A stretch of DNA of 64,000 nucleotides from contig CBDCTC010000004.1 of assembly GCA_965222125.1 (NCBI GenBank), positions 130,299 through 194,298 on the forward strand. Direction: 5' to 3'. The notes under the pieces are model-generated. The model searched no databases. It had not been told where the DNA came from and saw only the letters and a list, made by a program, of their open reading frames with translations. The position numbers were made by a program, and so were the translations under genes. The stretch comes from Dehalococcoidia bacterium (lineage in GTDB: Bacteria; Chloroflexota; Dehalococcoidia; Lucifugimonadales; CAZENU01). Below are positions 3,426 through 58,271 of the stretch, piece after piece. Every line of letters begins with the position of its first letter. Positions within the stretch are counted from its first letter, which is position 1.

Positions 3426-3697
3426 CCTCTTGCATAACCGTCATTCCCGCGACACGGAGACGTTTGCACAACCGTCATTCCCGCGAAAGCGGGAATCTAG
3501 GGGTGAGTTGTCCAGCTAAGAAATCTACGTATCTCCACGACATTCGTCTCCCACAAGGGGAGTTGCGCAAAGGTCTCCGGACGCGGGAAGCAACGGCGAG
3601 GGGTGGGGATGGGTTCCCGTCTCCACGGGAACGACGGGCGGAGGCGGCGCACCCACACCGTCATTCCCGCGAGGGAAGTTACGCCAAGGTCTCTCGA
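3426..3697. repeat. REP-like repeat cluster (at least 4 units plus the 48-bp hairpin module)
   Basis: CCGTCATTCCCGCG occurs at 3438-3451, 3472-3485 and 3658-3671. A perfect hairpin ATTCCCGC-GAAA-GCGGGAAT lies at 3477-3496. The module at 3599-3646 is identical to 2029-2076. The cluster lies between convergent genes. Confidence 0.8.
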
Positions 3698-23214: not shown

Positions 23215-23244
23215 GGATTCCCGCGTTCGCGGGAATGACGGAGG
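23215..23244. repeat. REP-like palindromic unit (GGATTCCCGCGTTCGCGGGAATGACGGAGG)
   Basis: Perfect ATTCCCGCG-TT-CGCGGGAAT palindrome with the GACGG tail, in an intergenic region. Confidence 0.75.
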
Positions 23245-24361: not shown

Positions 24362-25420
24362 CTACTCTACCCGGTGGTAGATGAACGGCGACCCCGACAG
24401 GATTTCCAAGTCCTGCTCGGTCAGATAGGTCTCTGGATAGTCCCAGAAGTACCCCAACCACATCAGGGCCCAGGTGTCGCACGTCTCTAGTCCTTCGTCG
24501 CATCCCGCTGGGTGACGGAGCCCAAGGGCGTGACCTAGCTCGTGGGCAAGACCGCCTATCCAGCCGTATGTGCCTCGCGGGCCGGACGCGCACTGTTCGT
24601 AGTTGTCGGGGTCCACGAGGCCCATCAGGTCGCCCCTGTGGACTATTGTGATTCCCTGGCCCCCCTGCCCCAGCGTGCTCGTGCCGTCGCACCTGAACTT
24701 CACGTCGGCGTAGATGGCCCATACGTACTCCGGTGATTGGCGTCTCGGAGCCGGCTGGCAGCCCGCCAGATCGGACAGAACCCGCGAATATCCCCGCTCG
24801 GCCTCGTAGTGCGTCGATGGGTTCTCGAGCGAGCATACCTGCGGCACGTCGCCCACGATTCTGAATGTGGGGCCGTCGAGTTGCTCCGCGTACCAGCACT
24901 GGACGTGATAGGCCGCGTACCTGATCGCCTCTCGGTAGTGGTCTTGCATTTCGCGGTCAGACGGCACGGCGTAAATGACGCGCACGGCCGGGCCGGGCGT
25001 CGGGGTGACGGTTGGCGTCAGACATGGAATCGGCGTCGCGGTCGGCGTTGGCGTCGCGGTTGGGGTAGCAGTCGGCGTAGGCGTCGAGGTAGGAGTCGGA
25101 GTGGCGGTCGGCGACGGCGTAGGGGTCGGCGACGGAGTCGGAGTGGCAGTTGGCGTCCGAGTTGGCGTCGCGGTTGGGGTAGCCGGCGGCGTAAGGGTCG
25201 GCGTGCGCGTCGGGGTCGGGGTTGACGTGGGTGTCGCGGTCGGGGCGACCGTCGCAGTTGGCGTGGCTGACGGCGACGGTGTAGCTGTCGGCACAGACGT
25301 AGCGGTGACAGCTACCGCCAGCGGGCTGGGGTGCTCGACCACGTCGTCGCCGCCGCAGGCAAACGACACCGCAGCCGACACGTAGAAAAGCGCGAGCAGA
25401 GTCCTCGTGGGTTGCCACAC
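24362..25420 (-). CDS. Secreted zinc metalloprotease-like protein with a long Pro/Thr-rich linker
   Basis: The N-terminal hydrophobic leader ends ...AVSFACGG. An ~85-aa (T/S/A)P repeat linker follows. The C-terminal domain carries [11 protein letters not shown] (HExxHxxGxxH, metzincin-type). Confidence 0.75.
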
Positions 25421-26881: not shown

Positions 26882-27367
26882 CTATCCTCCGGGCGCCGCA
26901 GCCGCTACCGCGTCCATGACGGCGCCGTATCTCGCATCGTTGGTCGACAGTGTGAGCCTGCGATCGTCCTCACCCAGCCGCTCGAAGCGGACCTCGAGAC
27001 GCGGGACTCCTTCGAGGTAGCGCAACGCTCTGTCCGCCCACTCGACCGCGCACGCCCCGTCACCGAAGAGATACTCGTCCAGGCCGAGATCGACGACCTC
27101 GGTCTCCGAGTCGAGCCGGTAGAGGTCTATGTGGTAGAGCGGTATGCGGGCAGCGTACTCGGACATCAGGACGAATGTCGGACTTCGCGCGAACTCGTCG
27201 CCGCCAAGGCCCCACAGTATCCCCTGGGTCAGGCACGTCTTTCCGGCGCCGAGCTCGCCGAAGAGGAGGTACACGTGCCCCGGCTCGGCGTGCGAACCGA
27301 GAGCGCGCCCGACATCCTGGGTCTCCCCGGCGGTATGGGTGACGACCTCGACGTGGCTGTCGTGCAA
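26882..27367 (-). CDS. tsaE: tRNA t6A biosynthesis ATPase TsaE
   Basis: 161 aa. It has the Walker A motif GELGAGKTCLTQGI and ...YHIDLYRL. Confidence 0.8.
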   Translation of the reverse strand: MHDSHVEVVTHTAGETQDVGRALGSHAEPGHVYLLFGELGAGKTCLTQGILWGLGGDEFARSPTFVLMSEYAARIPLYHIDLYRLDSETEVVDLGLDEYLFGDGACAVEWADRALRYLEGVPRLEVRFERLGEDDRRLTLSTNDARYGAVMDAVAAAAPGG

Positions 27368-27483
27368 ATTCGTTAAGACCGGCTCCGGAGCGCCGCGTCT
27401 GGAGGGTCGGGAATGCGTGGCGCCGAATGGCTCGTGTATTATAGTCAGATAGGATACGCAGCCTCAAGGCCGGGAAGAAGGGG

Positions 27484-27647
27484 GTAACTGTTCAGACTCG
27501 GTGAGGGGAATACTCCGCCCCTGGATACCCGCCTTCGCGGGTATGACGGAGGGGACGTTGCGCGCGCCCTTCGATACGCGCCGGTCAAGGCACCGGCGCT
27601 ACTCAGGGTGAGCGGGTTGGGTGGGCCACTCAAGTCTGAACAGTTAC
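27484..27647. mobile_element. MITE (164 bp) with perfect 15-bp TIRs and an 8-bp target-site duplication
   Basis: TIRs are GTAACTGTTCAGACT (27484-27498) and AGTCTGAACAGTTAC (27633-27647). The direct repeat AGAAGGGG lies at 27476-27483 and 27648-27655. The interior has no ORF and carries a REP-like palindrome (27523-27552). Confidence 0.85.
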
Positions 27648-27660
27648 AGAAGGGGCCGGA

Positions 27661-28392
27661 TTGCGCGCGCTGATCGTCTCCGACATACACTCGAATCTGG
27701 AGGCGTTCCAAGCCGTGCTCGGCGACGCCGAGAACAGAGGCGGATTCGACCAGATCTGGTCACTCGGTGACCTCGTCGGCTACGGCCCCGACCCGGGGCC
27801 GTGTGTCGACCTCATCCGCCAGCACGACGGCGTCGCCGTGGCCGGCAACCACGACCTCGCAGCGGTAGGGAAGCTGGGCACCGAGGCGTTCAACGACTAC
27901 GCGGCGGCCGCCGTCCACTGGACCGCCGCGCAGCTCGGCGAGGAGCAGAAGAGCTACCTGCGCCAGCTGCCCCTCAAGACCGAGGTAGACAACTTCACTC
28001 TGGCCCACGGCAGTCCGCGAAACCCTGTCTGGGAGTACGTGGTCACGCCGCGGTCGGCGGCGGCCAACTTCCGGTATTTCCGGACCGAGCGGTGCCTCGT
28101 CGGGCACTCGCACATCCCGTTCATCTGCCGACCAAGGGAAGACACCGCTGTGTTCGGCCCGTTTCCGTTGGACGAGGCCGTGGCGCTGGGCCCGGGACGA
28201 GTGATCGTCAACCCCGGAGGGCTGGGACAGCCGCGCGATGGAGACCCGCGGGCGACATACGCGGTCTACGACGCGGACGCCGGTGCCGTCTACCACCACA
28301 GGGTCGAGTACGACATCCCGAAGACCCAGGAAAAGATCGTCGAGCGCGGGCTGCCGATGTTCCTGGCGCTCCGGCTCGCTAGCGGCAGGTAG
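27661..28392 (+). CDS. Metallophosphoesterase (calcineurin-like, YfcE/MJ0936-type)
   Basis: 243 aa with a TTG start. Motifs: MRALIVSDIHSN, ...LGDLVGYGP..., ...GNHD..., ...GHSH.... Confidence 0.8.
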   Translation: MRALIVSDIHSNLEAFQAVLGDAENRGGFDQIWSLGDLVGYGPDPGPCVDLIRQHDGVAVAGNHDLAAVGKLGTEAFNDYAAAAVHWTAAQLGEEQKSYLRQLPLKTEVDNFTLAHGSPRNPVWEYVVTPRSAAANFRYFRTERCLVGHSHIPFICRPREDTAVFGPFPLDEAVALGPGRVIVNPGGLGQPRDGDPRATYAVYDADAGAVYHHRVEYDIPKTQEKIVERGLPMFLALRLASGR

Positions 28393-52530: not shown

Positions 52531-53623
52531 TAGAGGTTTTGTGGTACTGAAACGGCTCTGCTAAGGCGTATCTCCGCTCGTTGTTCTGGTTTGGGCGCAC
52601 TTCGCCCATGTCAGGATGCCAAGTATCCCTCTGTCGTTATCAAGTTCGTCATCCCCAGCAGCAACATCAGCCGTTGTGTGTTCTTTGCCAGCCCACGGTA
52701 GCGCACCTTGGCGTAGCCAAAGTGCCGCTTCACGTACAGGAACAGATGCTCCACCTTCGCCCTGGTCGACGCCTTGCGCTTCTCCATAAGCGCCTCATAG
52801 CTTCCCGGCTCCAGTTGCCGACGTCTCCCGGGCCTCATCGCCACCAACCACTCGACATCCGACTCTCGATTCTCCAATCGCTTGTCGACTCCCTGATACC
52901 CCGCATCGCCCCACACCCGATTCTCTCCACCGTGCAGCAGCTGGTGAGCCTCCGTCACGTCATGAACGTTCGCAGGTGTCGTTCTTACGCTATGTACTAC
53001 TCCCGTCTCAGCGTCCGCTCCGATGTGTACCTTCATCCCGAAGTGCCACTCATTCCCCTTCTTCGTCTGACGCATCTCAGGGTCTCGCTTTCCTGAACGA
53101 TTCTTCGTCGACGATGGCGCCTCAATAATGCTCGCGTCCACGATCGTTCCCTCCCGAAGCCGCAGTCCCTGGGACTCCAGATGACGGTTGATCTCCTCGA
53201 ACATACCTTGCCCCAACTCGTGCTCTTCCAGCAGATGGCGGAAGTTCAGAATCGTCGTCTCGTCCGGGAGCGGGCCCGACAGCCTCAACCCTACGAACCG
53301 CCTCACCGACTCGACCTCATAGAGCATGTCTTCCATTCCAGGATCACTGAGGTTGTAGAACAACTGCACACAGTGTATCCGCAGCATCGCAGACAACTCA
53401 TAGGGGCGCCGGCCACGGCCCGCCTTGGGATAGAACCGGCGGAAGCGCTCTTCGAGCCGTTCCCACGGGATCAGACCATCCATGCGCTCAAGGAATATCT
53501 CCCGACGGGTCTTGCGCTTCTTGCTCTCGTATTCCAACTCGGCAAATGTTGGCTGGTCCATCGTGTCTTCACCCCAAACATTTCTGTCTTCCTAGTGGCA
53601 TAGTACTATGCCACAACACACTA
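52531..53623 (-). mobile_element. IS5-family insertion sequence (boundaries approximate)
   Basis: The transposase CDS is 52611..53561. The candidate imperfect terminal repeats are TAGAGGTTTTGTGG (52531-) and the reverse complement of CCACAACACACTA (-53623). The local GC content is clearly lower than the flanks. Confidence 0.55.
52611..53561 (-). CDS. IS5-family DDE transposase
   Basis: 316 aa. Motifs ...FAELEY..KKRKTRREIFLERMDGLIPWE..., ...GTIVDASIIEAPSSTKN..., ...HFGMKVHIGAD..., ...WGDAGYQG... and ...KVEHLFLYVKRHFGYAKVRYRGLAKN match the IS5/InsH-like pattern. Confidence 0.9.
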   Translation of the reverse strand: MDQPTFAELEYESKKRKTRREIFLERMDGLIPWERLEERFRRFYPKAGRGRRPYELSAMLRIHCVQLFYNLSDPGMEDMLYEVESVRRFVGLRLSGPLPDETTILNFRHLLEEHELGQGMFEEINRHLESQGLRLREGTIVDASIIEAPSSTKNRSGKRDPEMRQTKKGNEWHFGMKVHIGADAETGVVHSVRTTPANVHDVTEAHQLLHGGENRVWGDAGYQGVDKRLENRESDVEWLVAMRPGRRRQLEPGSYEALMEKRKASTRAKVEHLFLYVKRHFGYAKVRYRGLAKNTQRLMLLLGMTNLITTEGYLAS

Positions 53624-53851
53624 GGCTTGTTCAGAGTGTCCCTAGATCGTCGTTCGGTCCGGGCGACTGGCGCGACAGAGGCGGGGAGTACGTACCATAT
53701 TGTAGCAAGTGTGTGGCCCAGAGCGAGACCTCGCCGGGGTCGAAGCTTCTGGGAGACGTTGCGGTCAGCACCGACCCCACCGGTCTGATCGCGGCTCCGA
53801 CGACCTGCCGATCGGGTCTGGTCACTCTCTAATTCGTGCTAAAGCGGTTCC

Positions 53852-55538
53852 TCAGGACACGATCAGCCCCTCCTGAGGCTGTGTCCAGGGCAGATTGTAG
53901 ACAAACGCGATCTGCGGCGCGCGCGGTATCAACATTTCTCCGAAGGGCACGTCGATGACCACGGGCGCCTTGCGTTGCAGGGCGAGCGGAATCAACGTTC
54001 CCAGCTCCAGGGGGTCGTTTGCCCTCATGCCGACTGCGCCGAACGACTCGGCGAACTTGACGAAGTCCGGGTTGTGCAGGTCGGTCCCGTACGTTCCGCC
54101 AAACATCTCATTCAAGTCGCGGGCAACGTTGCCGTAGGAGTCGTTTCTGAAGACCACGACTACTACGTTGATCCCGTACTTGACCGCAGTAGCGAGCTCG
54201 ACCGCGTTGAACATGAACCCCCCGTCGCCGGCCATGCAGACCACGGGGCGGTCGGGCCTGGCCACCTTCGCGCCCAGAGCGGTCGGGAAGGCGTAGCCGA
54301 GATTGAACGAGTAGCCGGAGTCGACGTACGTCTTTGGGCGGCTCACCTTGTAGTGGGTGCGGGCGTAGTAGCCGAACTGCGTGACGTCCCAGATCACGAA
54401 GGCGTCCTCTGGAATCGCGTCTTGTATCGCCTCCAGGACGGCGTACTGGGGCTCCTTGAGGCGGATGTCGTAGTAGGCTATGAGGCTGCGGGCCGCTGCG
54501 ACCGCTTCCGCGGGTGACGAGCGCTCCCCGGCCCCGGTCTCTATCAGGAGCGGGATCAGGGCTTCGGTCGTGGCTTTGGCGTCGCCGTGGAGGGGTATGG
54601 TGTTGGACTGGACCCTCGTGAGCTCAGCGTCGTCTATGTTGATGTTCACCAGAGTGGACGACTCTCCGGCGGGATTGCCCAGCGAAAAGCGTGCGCCGAT
54701 ACCTATCACCACGTCCGCGGACTGCATCACTTCGTAGAGCCGGTTCATCTCCTGTCTGTCGCCCCGGGGGCTGAAACAGGAGCCGTAAGACAGCGGATGG
54801 CTGTCCGGTATGGTTCCCTTGCCGCCGCTGGAGGTAACAACGGGTATGTTCGTCGACTCCGCCAGCTTGACGAGGGCCTCTTCTGCGTCGGACCTCGCGA
54901 CTCCTCCGCCCGCGAATATCAGTGGCGAGCGAGACCTGGCGATGATCTTGGCGGCTTCTCTCAGGTCTTCCTGGCTTGGGACGATTCGTGAGATGCGGGC
55001 AGGATTTCGCAGCTCGACCTCTTCTCGCTCCACACCGGTGTCAGGCGGAATCTCAAGTAGAACGGGACGAGGACGGCCGGTGCGCATCTGCCTGAACGCT
55101 TCGAACACGGCGTCCGGGATCTCCCGGGGCCGGGGCGCAAGTCGCTGCCACTTGGTCACGGAGCGCACCGCGTCCGCCTGGTTGGCGATTTCGTGAACGG
55201 CCCCCAAGTTCTTGCCGATCGCGCCGCGCGGGATCTGGCCCGCAACGAGCAGCACGGGCGTGGACCGAGAGTATGCGTTGGTCAAACCGGCCGCGGCGTT
55301 GTAGAGACCGGCACCCGGCACCACCAGCGCTACCCCCGGCTTTCCCGATGCGCGCATAGCCGTCTGCCATGTACGTCGTGGCCTGTTCGTGGCGGGTCGT
55401 GATCATGCGAATGCCCGGCTCGTCCCGCAGCGCGGCGACAATGCCGTAGATCTGGATACCTGGGATCCCGAATACGACTTCGACGCCTTCCCTCACGAGC
55501 GATTTCACCAGGGCTTCGCCCCCGCTCATTTTGACCAT
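53852..55538 (-). pseudogene. Thiamine-pyrophosphate-dependent enzyme (acetolactate synthase large-subunit-like), frameshifted
   Basis: The N-terminal part is in ORF 55053..55538 (MVKMSGGEALVKSLVREGVEVVFGIPG...TTYMADGYAR). The continuation ...ASGKPGVALVVPGAGLYNAA...GDGGFMFN... is in ORF 53852..55357. The frames switch at the GCGCGC run near 55349-55356. The total span is 1687 nt, which is not a multiple of 3. Confidence 0.8.
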
Positions 55539-55642
55539 GATTCGTTCCCTCCATAAGAACAGACTCGCTAACCTCCGGCGGCCTGGCGGTCAGCCGGTAT
55601 GGCTAGGAGCCAAACGCGTGTGTCAAATAGAGACGTTCCAAG

Positions 55643-55788
55643 GGACTGTTCAGACTCGAGGAGATGGACTCGGCGCGGGGCACCACCAACCATGAAAATG
55701 AGGCTGCACCGGTAGGGGCGGGTTTCAAACCCGCCCCTACGCCAAGTCGGCCAGGGGTTATTTTCAGAGAAAGTCTGAACACCTACCT
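55643..55788. mobile_element. MITE, second copy of the CTGTTCAGACT-TIR family (degenerate ends)
   Basis: CTGTTCAGACT lies at 55646-55656 and AGTCTGAACA at 55772-55781. TTCCAAG flanks the element at 55636-55642 and 55789-55795. The interior carries the perfect palindrome GTAGGGGCGGGTTTCAAACCCGCCCCTAC (55712-55740). Confidence 0.7.
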
Positions 55789-55927
55789 TTCCAAGTCCCC
55801 GATGCGCCCCCGCCGCGAATTCTCCATCACGGCTTAGGACCCAAGGTCCGCCTTGTCGCTTACCGTTCCGTGGCTGTAAGGCCGTTAAGTGCCAGGCACT
55901 GGAGCGATTACGCTTCCGAGAGGTGGG

Positions 55928-56228
55928 TTACAAGCCCTCGACGACCACCATGTTGATGTTGGATGATCTGGAGCGGACGTCATGGAGCGACGTGTGCTCA
56001 GGCGAGTTGAGCCAGGCGTGGACCTGCGGGACGTCGTCGAATTCAAGTACGGCGAGGCGATCGGGCGTCCAGGTCCCCGATACGACCTCGACCTCACCAC
56101 CGCGCGCGACAAACGCGCGCGACAAATTTGCCGCCGTGACTCTCAACCGTGCTCGCTACACGCTCGAGAAACTGTCCATAGAGATCCGCATCCGTTACCT
56201 CGACGTCTGTTATTACGTTTGCTGACAT
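55928..56228 (-). pseudogene. DUF1330-family gene disrupted by a 13-bp tandem duplication
   Basis: From ATG 56228 the gene reads MSANVITDVEVTDADLYGQFLERVASTVESHGGKFVAR and then shifts frame. The + strand CGCGCGCGACAAA occurs twice in tandem (56101-56113 and 56114-56126). Removing one copy restores ...GGKFVARGGEVEVVSGTWTPDRLAVLEFDD...VVVEGL, a 95-aa product with typical DUF1330 length and pattern. Confidence 0.8.
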
Positions 56229-56288
56229 AGGTACGTCTTCTTTGAGGATGATGCTTGTCCGAAGTTCAACGTCATTCTACCGCTCCCT

Positions 56289-58271
56289 TCAGACAGGCTG
56301 TATCGCTTCGGACATTGCCGCGTCGTAGCGGCGGGCGCAGGCGTCGACCACCACGTCGACGTCCTCTTCGAGCAGGTATCGCTCACCGGCCAGGCGCAGG
56401 GCGTGCTCGCGGACCAGGCCGAGGTACTCGTCGCGGCTGCCGTACCGCTCCCGCAGCGACGGGCGGCTGTCTCCGGCGGCCTTCCGGGAGTCGGCCTCTG
56501 GCGCGAAGAATAACGTGAGCCCCTGCATCGGCACGATCTGCTCGGGAGCGCCGGTCTCGGGCGCGCGAGTGTTCCAGCCTGCATGGGTCGCGACCGGTAC
56601 CAGGATGTCCGGAAGTCGCACGCCGGCCGTCTCGTTTCCATCGGAGTCGACTGCCGACACGAAACTCGGATAGACTCGACCCTCGCTCACGGGGTAGGCG
56701 CCGACGCCCCTGTCGGCCTCCGGGCCGAGGTCGACTTCCCGGAGCACCCACAGCCTCTCCGGGTCCGGCTTTACATCGTCCGGGACCGGGCCATAGGACG
56801 CCAACACCTCTTCGCGGGTGACGGCGGTGCCGTCGTCGAGCCTCGGATGGCTGTTCGGCGGCGGCTCCACGCCTTCCGCTACCCAGCGGTCGAGGTTGAC
56901 GAGGGCCGCGCGAAGGAGCGGCCGGTAGTCGACGACGTTGAACCCGTGGCGGCCACGACAGCCGTCCGTCGCGTTGACACGGCCCTGCGGCAGCGAGCCC
57001 GGACCGTGCTGCGTGCCCCCGAGGTGGTAGACCCGCGTGCCCTCCGCCTGGTCCAGGTCGCATCCCGCGAGCCCGTTGATGTGCACCAGGGAGCCGTCGC
57101 CGCGCCAGTATTCGGCCGACGTGTTCGTGTAGAAGATCTTCGGCACGCCGCCCTGCTCTGCCTGACGGCTGAGCAGGCCGGAGCGCCGGCCGGTGTGCGG
57201 GTCGGACGTCTCGGTGTCCGCGAACGGGAACAGGTGCCCGAATCCGGGCGTCGACTGGACCGACGGTTGGGCGAACCGGTGGTTGAACTCCCCGCGCCGC
57301 CCGCCGGCCACGTGGGGCATGAGCCCGTCGAAGACGGGCCTTCCGTCCTCGTCCAGGTTCAGGCCAAGCGAGACGAAGTGCCTGAGCAGCCGGCCCGTCT
57401 GGGACGAGCCGAACGCGTAGGCCCGGTCGAACCCGCCGTCGACCGGGTTCAGAGGCGACGGGTCTCTCAGCCACGTTGCGGCTTCCCGCACCGCGAGCAG
57501 TCCGGCGCCGACGACGGGCGCCCGCTCGGTGGTGTAGACGAGGTGGTAGATCCTGCCGGGCTGGAACCCCGACTCAAGGTAGACGTGCTCCGCGCTGGGG
57601 ACGACGCCGTCGGCCGTCTCTTGCGCGAACCTCCACTCCGAGGGCGGTACCGGGGTGTCGGGACCGTCCTCCCAGTCACGCACGAAGAGCGCGGCCTCGG
57701 GCTTCCCCATGTCCGCGACAGGGTAGGGGTGGTGGACGCGGTCGGCCAGCAGCCAGGTGCGTTGGACGTCGTTGGGCCAGATCTGTACGACCGTCTGGCC
57801 GCGGACGGGTTTCCCGTCTATTTGAGCGCGAGGGGCCTCCAGCCCGATCAGTCCCTCGCTCCGGAACACGTCCCACTGCCATCCGATCGAGACGGTCGAG
57901 TAGCCTCCGCGGTATAGGAACCCGTCGCCGGCCGGTATTTCCCCCGAGCCCTCGGGCGGCGCGTCGCCCACGTTGAACATGGAACTCATGCCGTACCGGC
58001 GGCCGCGGTTGACCACGTCCACGATGAGGCCGCGGTTGCCGCGGTCCGGCTCCTCCGGCGCGAGCAGCGTGAAGTCGGACCGGAACAGGACGCGGCCATC
58101 GCCGTCCCGAGGCGCGAGGCCGAGGTCGACGATTGGGCTGTTGGCCCTGTTGTCGGGGTCTACGCCGAACGTGACTACGCCATCGGTCCGCCGGTACGGG
58201 CCGGCGCGCCCGAACGACTTGCCCCCGGCGAACGGTCCGCTGTGGGTCGTCTCTACGTTGACGACGGCCAT
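56289..58271 (-). CDS. Large conserved hypothetical protein (possibly an alpha/beta-hydrolase-domain family)
   Basis: 660-aa uninterrupted ORF with coding-like composition. I recall the N-terminal pattern ...GPFAGGKSFG.AGPY...G...F.VDP... from uncharacterised hydrolase-like proteins, but I cannot confirm this. Confidence 0.6.
   Translation of the reverse strand: MAVVNVETTHSGPFAGGKSFGRAGPYRRTDGVVTFGVDPDNRANSPIVDLGLAPRDGDGRVLFRSDFTLLAPEEPDRGNRGLIVDVVNRGRRYGMSSMFNVGDAPPEGSGEIPAGDGFLYRGGYSTVSIGWQWDVFRSEGLIGLEAPRAQIDGKPVRGQTVVQIWPNDVQRTWLLADRVHHPYPVADMGKPEAALFVRDWEDGPDTPVPPSEWRFAQETADGVVPSAEHVYLESGFQPGRIYHLVYTTERAPVVGAGLLAVREAATWLRDPSPLNPVDGGFDRAYAFGSSQTGRLLRHFVSLGLNLDEDGRPVFDGLMPHVAGGRRGEFNHRFAQPSVQSTPGFGHLFPFADTETSDPHTGRRSGLLSRQAEQGGVPKIFYTNTSAEYWRGDGSLVHINGLAGCDLDQAEGTRVYHLGGTQHGPGSLPQGRVNATDGCRGRHGFNVVDYRPLLRAALVNLDRWVAEGVEPPPNSHPRLDDGTAVTREEVLASYGPVPDDVKPDPERLWVLREVDLGPEADRGVGAYPVSEGRVYPSFVSAVDSDGNETAGVRLPDILVPVATHAGWNTRAPETGAPEQIVPMQGLTLFFAPEADSRKAAGDSRPSLRERYGSRDEYLGLVREHALRLAGERYLLEEDVDVVVDACARRYDAAMSEAIQPV

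Follow-up and report, generated by a model that had tools for sequence, protein, structure and literature searches.

A 164-bp sequence bounded by inverted repeats lies just upstream of a metallophosphoesterase gene in a genome from an uncultured Dehalococcoidia lineage, raising the questions of whether it is a mobile element, from what it might derive, and what its arrival has meant for the gene beside it. The window analysed, by which is meant the whole 64-kb stretch of DNA in which the sequence was noticed, has a G+C content of 66%. The element is referred to below as copy 1, and the positions of its parts and of its neighbours are collected in Table 1. Copy 1 is very probably a MITE that derives, as a non-autonomous form, from a single-ORF (ISBst12-type) IS of the IS66 family, a type common in Chloroflexota. 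It is well below 0.5 kb in size and has no transposase ORF, and the MITE reading, which had been put forward in a preliminary description of the locus, is supported by its TIRs, by a TSD that can be seen against an empty site, by dispersed copies, and by a transposase-encoding partner with which it shares its ends.

Table 1. Positions, within the 64-kb window, of the two elements, their parts and the neighbouring features
Feature	Position	Strand	Basis
Left TSD copy of copy 1, AGAAGGGG	27476..27483	.	Sequence; single copy at the empty sites of L134 and L135
MITE copy 1, 164 bp, IRL to IRR on the plus strand	27484..27647	+	Perfect TIR and TSD; absent from relatives
Left TIR GTAACTGTTCAGACT, IRL-like	27484..27498	+	Full-length IS66-family elements have the same ends
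Internal REP-like palindrome GGATACCCGC-CTTC-GCGGGTATGACGGAGG	27523..27552	+	Variant of the unit at about eight other window sites
Second hairpin module CCCTTCGATACGCGCCGG-TCAAGGCA-CCGGCGCTACTCAGGGTGAGCGG	27567..27615	+	Aligns with 272-301-bp L019 elements, 75-86%
Right TIR (AGTCTGAACAGTTAC on the plus strand)	27633..27647	-	In the parent IS, holds the transposase stop codon TGA
Right TSD copy of copy 1, native Shine-Dalgarno-like tract of the phosphoesterase gene	27648..27655	+	Empty-site alignment
Calcineurin-like metallophosphoesterase gene, 243 aa, TTG start	27661..28392	+	Pfam PF12850, PF00149
tsaE, divergent	26882..27367	-	Pfam PF02367; ndk-tsaB-tsaE synteny conserved
Sigma-70-like promoter match TTGAGG-18-TATAAT toward tsaE	27438..27467	-	Box conserved in all six aligned loci
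MITE copy 2, 145 bp, decayed TIRs GGGACTGTTCAGACT / GTAGGTGTTCAGACT	55642..55786	+	Two extra 15-mer matches
Left TSD of copy 2, CGTTCCAA	55634..55641	.	7/8 match to right flank
Right TSD of copy 2, CTTTCCAA	55787..55794	.	7/8 match to left flank
REP-like palindromes	51-63, 222-234, 253-265, 1973-1985, 3438-3450, 3472-3484, 3658-3670, 23215-23241

Structure of copy 1 and its empty site

Direct reading of the sequence bore out the preliminary description in its coordinates, in the sequences given for the element and its flanks, and in the perfect 15-bp TIRs and 8-bp TSD of an element that ends 13 nt before a start codon. The inverted repeat formed by the two ends is matched at 15 of 15 positions, AGAAGGGG directly abuts both of them, and the right-hand AGAAGGGG is followed by CCGGA and then by the TTG codon of the phosphoesterase gene. 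When up to three mismatches are allowed, the 15-mer at the left end matches the window four times, against 0.46 matches expected from shuffled sequences, none of which reached four; the pattern combining both TIRs matches twice, against an expectation of 0.00. As had been stated previously, no ORF lies wholly within copy 1. No promoter-like or terminator-like site was found in the element, nor any terminator-like site beside it, and searches of the whole window with curated covariance models at the gathering score, and for tRNA and tmRNA, returned no Rfam, tRNA or tmRNA matches.

The interior of copy 1 does contain the REP-like palindrome that had been reported from it, a shorter form of which (GGATACCCGC-CTTC-GCGGGTATGACGG) ends at position 27549. 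It is a variant of a unit, GGATTCCCGC-N4-GCGGGAATGACGG, found at about eight other positions in the window, all of which are outside any TIR-bounded element. More generally, a family of REP-like palindromes of the form CCCCTrGATTCCCGC-N4-GCGGGAATGACGG is scattered in the window, often clustered with a second conserved unit (..GTTGTGCAAAGGTCTCC..). The second hairpin module of copy 1 is the one part that it has in common with the longer elements of 272-301 bp, with which it clusters. As copy 1 thus carries both a REP-like palindrome and a module common to longer elements, its interior is modular. Folded as RNA, the element has a predicted free energy of -91.9 kcal/mol (z = -4.9), which no shuffled sequence equals; this is a trivial outcome of its TIRs and internal palindromes.

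The level of variation at this site was studied by comparing the window with the orthologous loci of five relatives (L134-L138), giving six aligned loci. The phosphoesterases of these relatives are 97%, 89%, 86%, 84% and 80% identical to that of the window, in the order of their numbering, and the arrangement of ndk-tsaB-tsaE and the phosphoesterase gene is kept in all five. Both L134 and L135 read ...AAGAAGGGGCCGGATTG..., with exactly one AGAAGGGG followed by CCGGA-TTG and no element, whereas at the same aligned position the window reads ...AGAAGGGG[164 bp]AGAAGGGGCCGGATTG.... Filled and empty alleles that differ by an exact 8-bp duplication are the classical signature of insertion. The preliminary description held that the MITE reading would fail if relatives carried the element without the duplicated AGAAGGGG; these two relatives carry a single AGAAGGGG and no element. 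The L137 and L138 loci are also empty, with purine tracts that have diverged (GGGAAAGG and CGGAAGGG respectively). Because the TIRs and TSD of copy 1 are perfect, and the element is absent from a relative with a 97% identical phosphoesterase, its insertion is recent.

The remaining relative, L136, carries a different member of the family at the same 8-bp target as copy 1 (L136:3779-3987). This element is 209 bp long and decayed, as are its flanks (AGAGAGGC / AGAGGGGT), and is 89% identical to one of the L019 elements, whereas its identity to copy 1, over a module of 61 nt, is no more than about 82%. Given that the closer relatives, at 97% and 89%, are empty, the L136 element is most simply explained as an independent insertion at the same site, and hence the target of copy 1 has apparently been re-used.

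A dispersed family and its IS66-type partner

The preliminary description overlooked a second member of the family, copy 2, in the same window. When the flanks of copy 2 are read in register with copy 1, they form the imperfect duplication listed in Table 1. The interiors of the two copies show no alignment beyond their ends, and clustering of interiors places copy 2 in a seven-member subfamily with 86-90% identity. Copy 2 is already present in L184, a relative with a 94% identical flanking hydrolase, which fits the decay of its ends; it is an old insertion, copy 1 a recent one. No clean empty site can be defined for copy 2, as the 94% relative is filled and the relatives at 88% and 84% are too diverged in the spacer. 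The spacer that separates copy 2 from the stop codon of the hydrolase gene includes about 460 bp (55800-56290) without a counterpart in the aligned relatives L184-L186. Downstream of copy 2, a thiamine-pyrophosphate enzyme gene on the minus strand (53852-55538) is split into overlapping ORFs of 161 aa and 501 aa, probably reflecting a frameshift or a pseudogene; only a 192-aa fragment of this gene is found in the 88% relative (L185).

A scan with the two-ended pattern TGTTCAGACT-N108-138-AGTCTGAACA, covering one genome per species, identified 41 genome loci, of which about 30 are clear members of the family. The lack of further copies, named in the preliminary description as an outcome that would tell against a MITE, is not observed: copy 2 lies in the window and the other members lie in other genomes. 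Their hosts are mostly Dehalococcoidia MAGs; a Chloroheliaceae MAG accounts for five members, and low-GC Clostridia-type MAGs contain a sister group, which has GTTAC tips. Most members can be read in register, with GTAAC tips and an 8-bp duplication that is perfect or matched at 7/8 positions, every duplication being different; in three cases (L008, L041 and L016) the duplication is of 9 bp. Taking the window and the 41 genome loci together, 42 TIR-bounded elements were recognised, with TSDs matched at 7/8 positions or better (or at least 8/9) in 29 of them, all different. Many size variants are present, ranging from 125 to 301 bp and each with a TSD, and the 15-bp tip is invariant while the interior varies between subfamilies. 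Neither the window nor the genome loci of the two-ended scan yielded another copy of this exact 164-bp sequence. Solo TIR ends in L016, L017 and L033 belong to degenerate MITEs or lie beside ordinary genes.

The sister family is represented by 147-bp elements at five loci (L001, L010, L015, L018 and L035) of the Clostridia MAG CALXCD, which has a G+C content of 29%. Their tips are GTTAC instead of GTAAC, the TGTTCAGACT core is unchanged and the 8-bp TSDs are perfect. Several of these TSDs are alike (ACTAGTTA, ACTAGATA, AACTAGTA), a possible sign of a favoured target or of insertion within some other repeat. BLAST searches of the low-GC relatives L020 and L001 against plasmids returned nothing informative. 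The scan of viral contigs with the 15-mer gave 92 single matches, judged to be at about the level of chance, and an apparent pair of TIRs 2.6 kb apart (L057, L086) was discarded, as it lies within phage portal and capsid genes.

In agreement with the preliminary description, the 64-kb window has no transposase with matching ends. The window does contain an IS5-family transposase gene (52611-53561, minus strand; PF01609, PF05598), just past which, at 53625-53645, lies GGCTTGTTCAGAGTGTCC, a sequence that has GTTCAGAGT in common with variant IS66-type TIRs. Periodic direct repeats of 12 and 18 nt, in 14 overlapping copies (repeat-scan family D1), occupy 24996-25307.

The family yields an extended end consensus, GTAACTGTTCAGACT-YNNK-GAG, and a metagenome scan with GTAACTGTTCAGACTNNNNGAG as the query detected 36 loci. 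At 16-17 metagenome loci, inverted pairs of 15-bp TIRs identical to those of copy 1 stand 1404-1495 bp apart, and a single ORF of 438-487 aa lies within each pair. This ORF encodes an IS66-family transposase, matching the NCBIfam equivalog model NF033517 at 277 and 247 bits (cut-off 180) as well as the Pfam families PF03050 (DDE_Tnp_IS66) and PF13005 (zf-IS66). The closest protein, P0121, is named by NCBI as 'IS66 family transposase [Chloroflexi bacterium]', and the transposase family comprises 6,097 proteins at E <= 1e-40. As a length of 1.4-1.5 kb leaves no room for tnpA or tnpB, these elements are of the single-ORF ISBst12 type. An autonomous partner with the same TIRs can therefore be found, in both metagenome and long-read contigs, among IS66-family elements of 1.40-1.50 kb. 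Of the three families to which the 8-bp TSD had originally been considered to point, IS66 is upheld, while IS256 and ISL3 are not, the enclosed transposases all being of IS66 type. A further candidate partner, L032:5396-6890, was rejected on finding it to be a long member of this MITE family split by an IS110-family element (378-aa DEDD transposase; PF01548, PF02371); IS110 elements are known to target repeated sequences.

Nine of the full-length copies (L175-L183) are on long-read contigs of 0.5-3.8 Mb. These are 1432-1452 bp in length, and perfect 8-bp TSDs, all different, flank eight of the nine. On short metagenome contigs, only one full-length copy has a TSD, which is attributed to chimeric assembly across repeats because the copies on megabase contigs do have them. 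The transposase ORF ends inside the right TIR, 8 nt before the end of the IS (...CAA GTC TGA ACAGTTAC). The similarity extends beyond the TIR: the left end of copy 1 agrees with IRL at 27 of 35 positions and its right end with IRR at 25 of 35, implying that copy 1 runs from IRL to IRR on the plus strand. In all full-length copies (L141-L183; for instance L148:12837-12865), the right TIR encodes the last residues of the transposase and its stop codon, and MITE copies retain the stretch that holds this codon.

In the ISfinder table, the ISBst12 group is characterised by GTAA termini and an 8-9-bp duplication. GTAA termini and TSDs of 8 bp, sometimes 9 bp, are likewise common to the present family, of which the window holds the non-autonomous form only. 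With GTAAC tips, 8-9-bp TSDs and a single ORF for an IS66-type DDE transposase, the parent of copy 1 is of the ISBst12-type branch of the IS66 family. This group is defined by its single ORF (cited in PMC12898284), and the transposition of such elements has been observed experimentally only recently (PMC12898284). One published member, ISDge4 of Deinococcus geothermalis, encodes a transposase of 449 aa and makes a direct repeat of 8 bp (PMC12898284). Its TIR, GTAACTGCTCAGCA, agrees with the corresponding GTAACTGTTCAGAC of copy 1 at 12 of 14 bases, and the full-length partners resemble ISDge4 in having a single transposase ORF of similar length. Whereas ISDge4 is an autonomous IS from Deinococcus, copy 1, in a Dehalococcoidia genome, is a derivative without coding capacity whose direct parents are the Chloroflexota elements described above.

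The Correia and Nezha elements are bacterial MITEs, as are MITEPsy1 and MITEPsy2 of Pseudomonas syringae (PMC3189936). The present family resembles all of these in consisting of small, non-coding elements with TIRs and a TSD, in being dispersed in many copies, in sharing its ends with an autonomous IS, in its intergenic positions near gene starts and in its strong predicted hairpin. It differs from them in having an IS66/ISBst12 parent, a Dehalococcoidia host and a modular interior of REP-like hairpins. No paper linking MITEs with Dehalococcoidia was found in the literature searched, and the family is of a known kind, although as a family it has apparently gone undescribed.

Alternative origins of copy 1

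Several other explanations for copy 1 can be weighed against this evidence. The one with most in its favour, albeit unlikely, is that copy 1 is an in situ remnant of a longer member of the family or of a full-length IS, shortened in place and never itself transposed. The failure to recover a second identical 164-bp copy is consistent with this, as is the greater length of the closest relatives, with which only one module is held in common. However, the perfect TIRs and TSD, together with the empty site in the 97% relative, leave little time for the interior to have decayed without decay of the termini. The interior also contains no remnant of a transposase gene beyond the last codons within IRR, and the many size variants in the family, each with its own TSD, also speak against it. 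It is much less probable that copy 1 is a structured host element, whether a REP/BIME-like unit, a cis-regulatory 5'-UTR RNA or a small RNA gene, with a terminal stem and flanking repeat that arose by chance or are structural. Its strong fold, its position in a 5' leader and its palindrome, repeated elsewhere in the window, are all in keeping with such an element. Against this stand the presence/absence polymorphism with an exact 8-bp duplication, the dozens of copies at unrelated sites, each with its own TSD, and ends that are common to transposase-encoding ISs; furthermore, there is no Rfam match and the fold follows trivially from the TIRs and palindromes. A REP or BIME would have neither TIR nor TSD, and only the internal palindrome of 27-30 nt can be described as REP-like, rather than the element as a whole.

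Derivation from another IS family with 8-bp duplications (IS1182, IS256 or ISL3) is the least credible of these alternatives. The transposon TnCO-1 of Thermoanaerobacter kivui has a junction reading ...gccCTGTTCAGACTgttgacaaaat beside an IS1182-type transposase (PMC12056078), and a match in Bacillus (L020) has TGTTCAGACTGTTGACAAACG at both ends, both of which might suggest such an origin. The ends of L020 and of the T. kivui element nevertheless show neither a GTAAC tip nor an in-register TSD, while the full-length elements between GTAACTGTTCAGACT ends all encode an IS66-family transposase, never one of IS1182, IS256 or ISL3, and the GTAA termini and 8-9-bp TSD match those of the ISBst12-group element ISDge4. 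An IS1182 origin in particular was rejected, as the resemblance of CTGTTCAGACT at the IS1182-like junction in T. kivui (PMC12056078) is confined to a motif of 10-11 nt and the full-length elements are of IS66 type. The reading of copy 1 as an ISBst12-type MITE is therefore retained below.

Mechanism, flanking genes and choice of target

As a MITE of this type, copy 1 carries the two ends of its parent, namely the 15-bp TIR and about 10-15 bp of subterminal sequence, but not the transposase, its interior being assembled from short hairpin modules of which the REP-like palindrome is one. On sequence grounds, it is taken to have been mobilised in trans by an IS66-type transposase, a DDE enzyme whose binding to the ends would lead to insertion at a staggered cut of 8 bp. 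The target was AGAAGGGG, a Shine-Dalgarno-like tract 5 nt upstream of the phosphoesterase TTG codon, which was duplicated on insertion. This start codon is supported by the homologues of the phosphoesterase, nearly all of which are 243 aa in length. The preliminary description regarded the promoter and RBS context of the gene as either derived from the element or displaced by it; for the RBS, derivation from the element is contradicted by the relatives: because the purine tract before the TTG is present as a single copy in the empty sites, it is, as judged from the alignment, the gene's own Shine-Dalgarno-like sequence, only duplicated by the insertion and not part of the element.

The RBS of the phosphoesterase gene, its 5-nt spacer and its start are thus unchanged, and the copy of the RBS is unpaired in the predicted RNA fold. 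What has changed is the length of the 5' spacer, which measures 293 bp here against about 121 bp in L135, the 172-bp increase being made up of the 164-bp element and the 8-bp duplication. The sole sigma-70-like match in this spacer is on the minus strand and directed toward tsaE, the insertion being 9 bp beyond the -35 box of this putative promoter; the same scan of the spacer identified no plus-strand promoter for the phosphoesterase gene. Since the only match points to tsaE, the displacement of a phosphoesterase promoter can only be put conditionally: any such promoter upstream would now be 172 bp farther off and would have to read through strongly folding sequence, and a transcript starting there would include that sequence in its leader. 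A more modest proposal is that copy 1, which lies close to the RBS, may have been recruited by the phosphoesterase gene as a regulator in its 5' leader.

The insertion of copy 1 at an RBS is not an instance of a general rule: systematic targeting of such sites was rejected, since just 4-5 of 29 insertions lie no more than 16 nt before what could plausibly be a gene start. A different pattern emerges from the positions of elements relative to one another. Six end-to-end junctions with spacers of 7-10 bp were found among about 90 elements in 584 kb of DNA (L019:6433-7166; L032:6890-6899; L155:607-616; L029:5749-5760; L031:585-593), against about 0.15 expected under uniform placement, or about 1 if placement is only intergenic, these expectations being rough estimates made without a formal test. 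At L019, three different elements have been inserted successively into one CCTCCGTC target, and at L155 a full-length IS adjoins another element across an 8-bp spacer. This suggests that the family tends to insert into the duplication beside a resident copy. In view of the 8-bp target shared by copy 1 and the L136 element, the six close junctions and the abutting IS at L155, it can tentatively be proposed, as a possibility rather than a probability, that targeting is end-directed or TSD-directed, with the transposase favouring, besides a few preferred sites, either the terminus of a resident copy or the target duplicated around it. Such behaviour would be loosely comparable to that of IS30, which targets IRs. 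To our knowledge, end-directed or TSD-directed targeting has not been described for IS66/ISBst12 elements.

The current understanding of transposons is unchanged by these results, which instead provide a fully worked case of a MITE, comprising the element, its empty site and its parent IS, in an uncultured Dehalococcoidia lineage. The family links MITEs to the single-ORF (ISBst12-type) elements, a branch of the IS66 family that has been little studied, and the 15-bp tip of the family is a simple marker with which these repeats can be annotated in Chloroflexota MAGs; the same tip is of use for spotting breakpoints in assemblies and recent polymorphisms between strains. Copy 1 illustrates how a gene whose ribosome-binding site is hit by an element can retain that site thanks to an 8-bp duplication, and the apparent preference for re-insertion beside resident copies points to a possible targeting mechanism.
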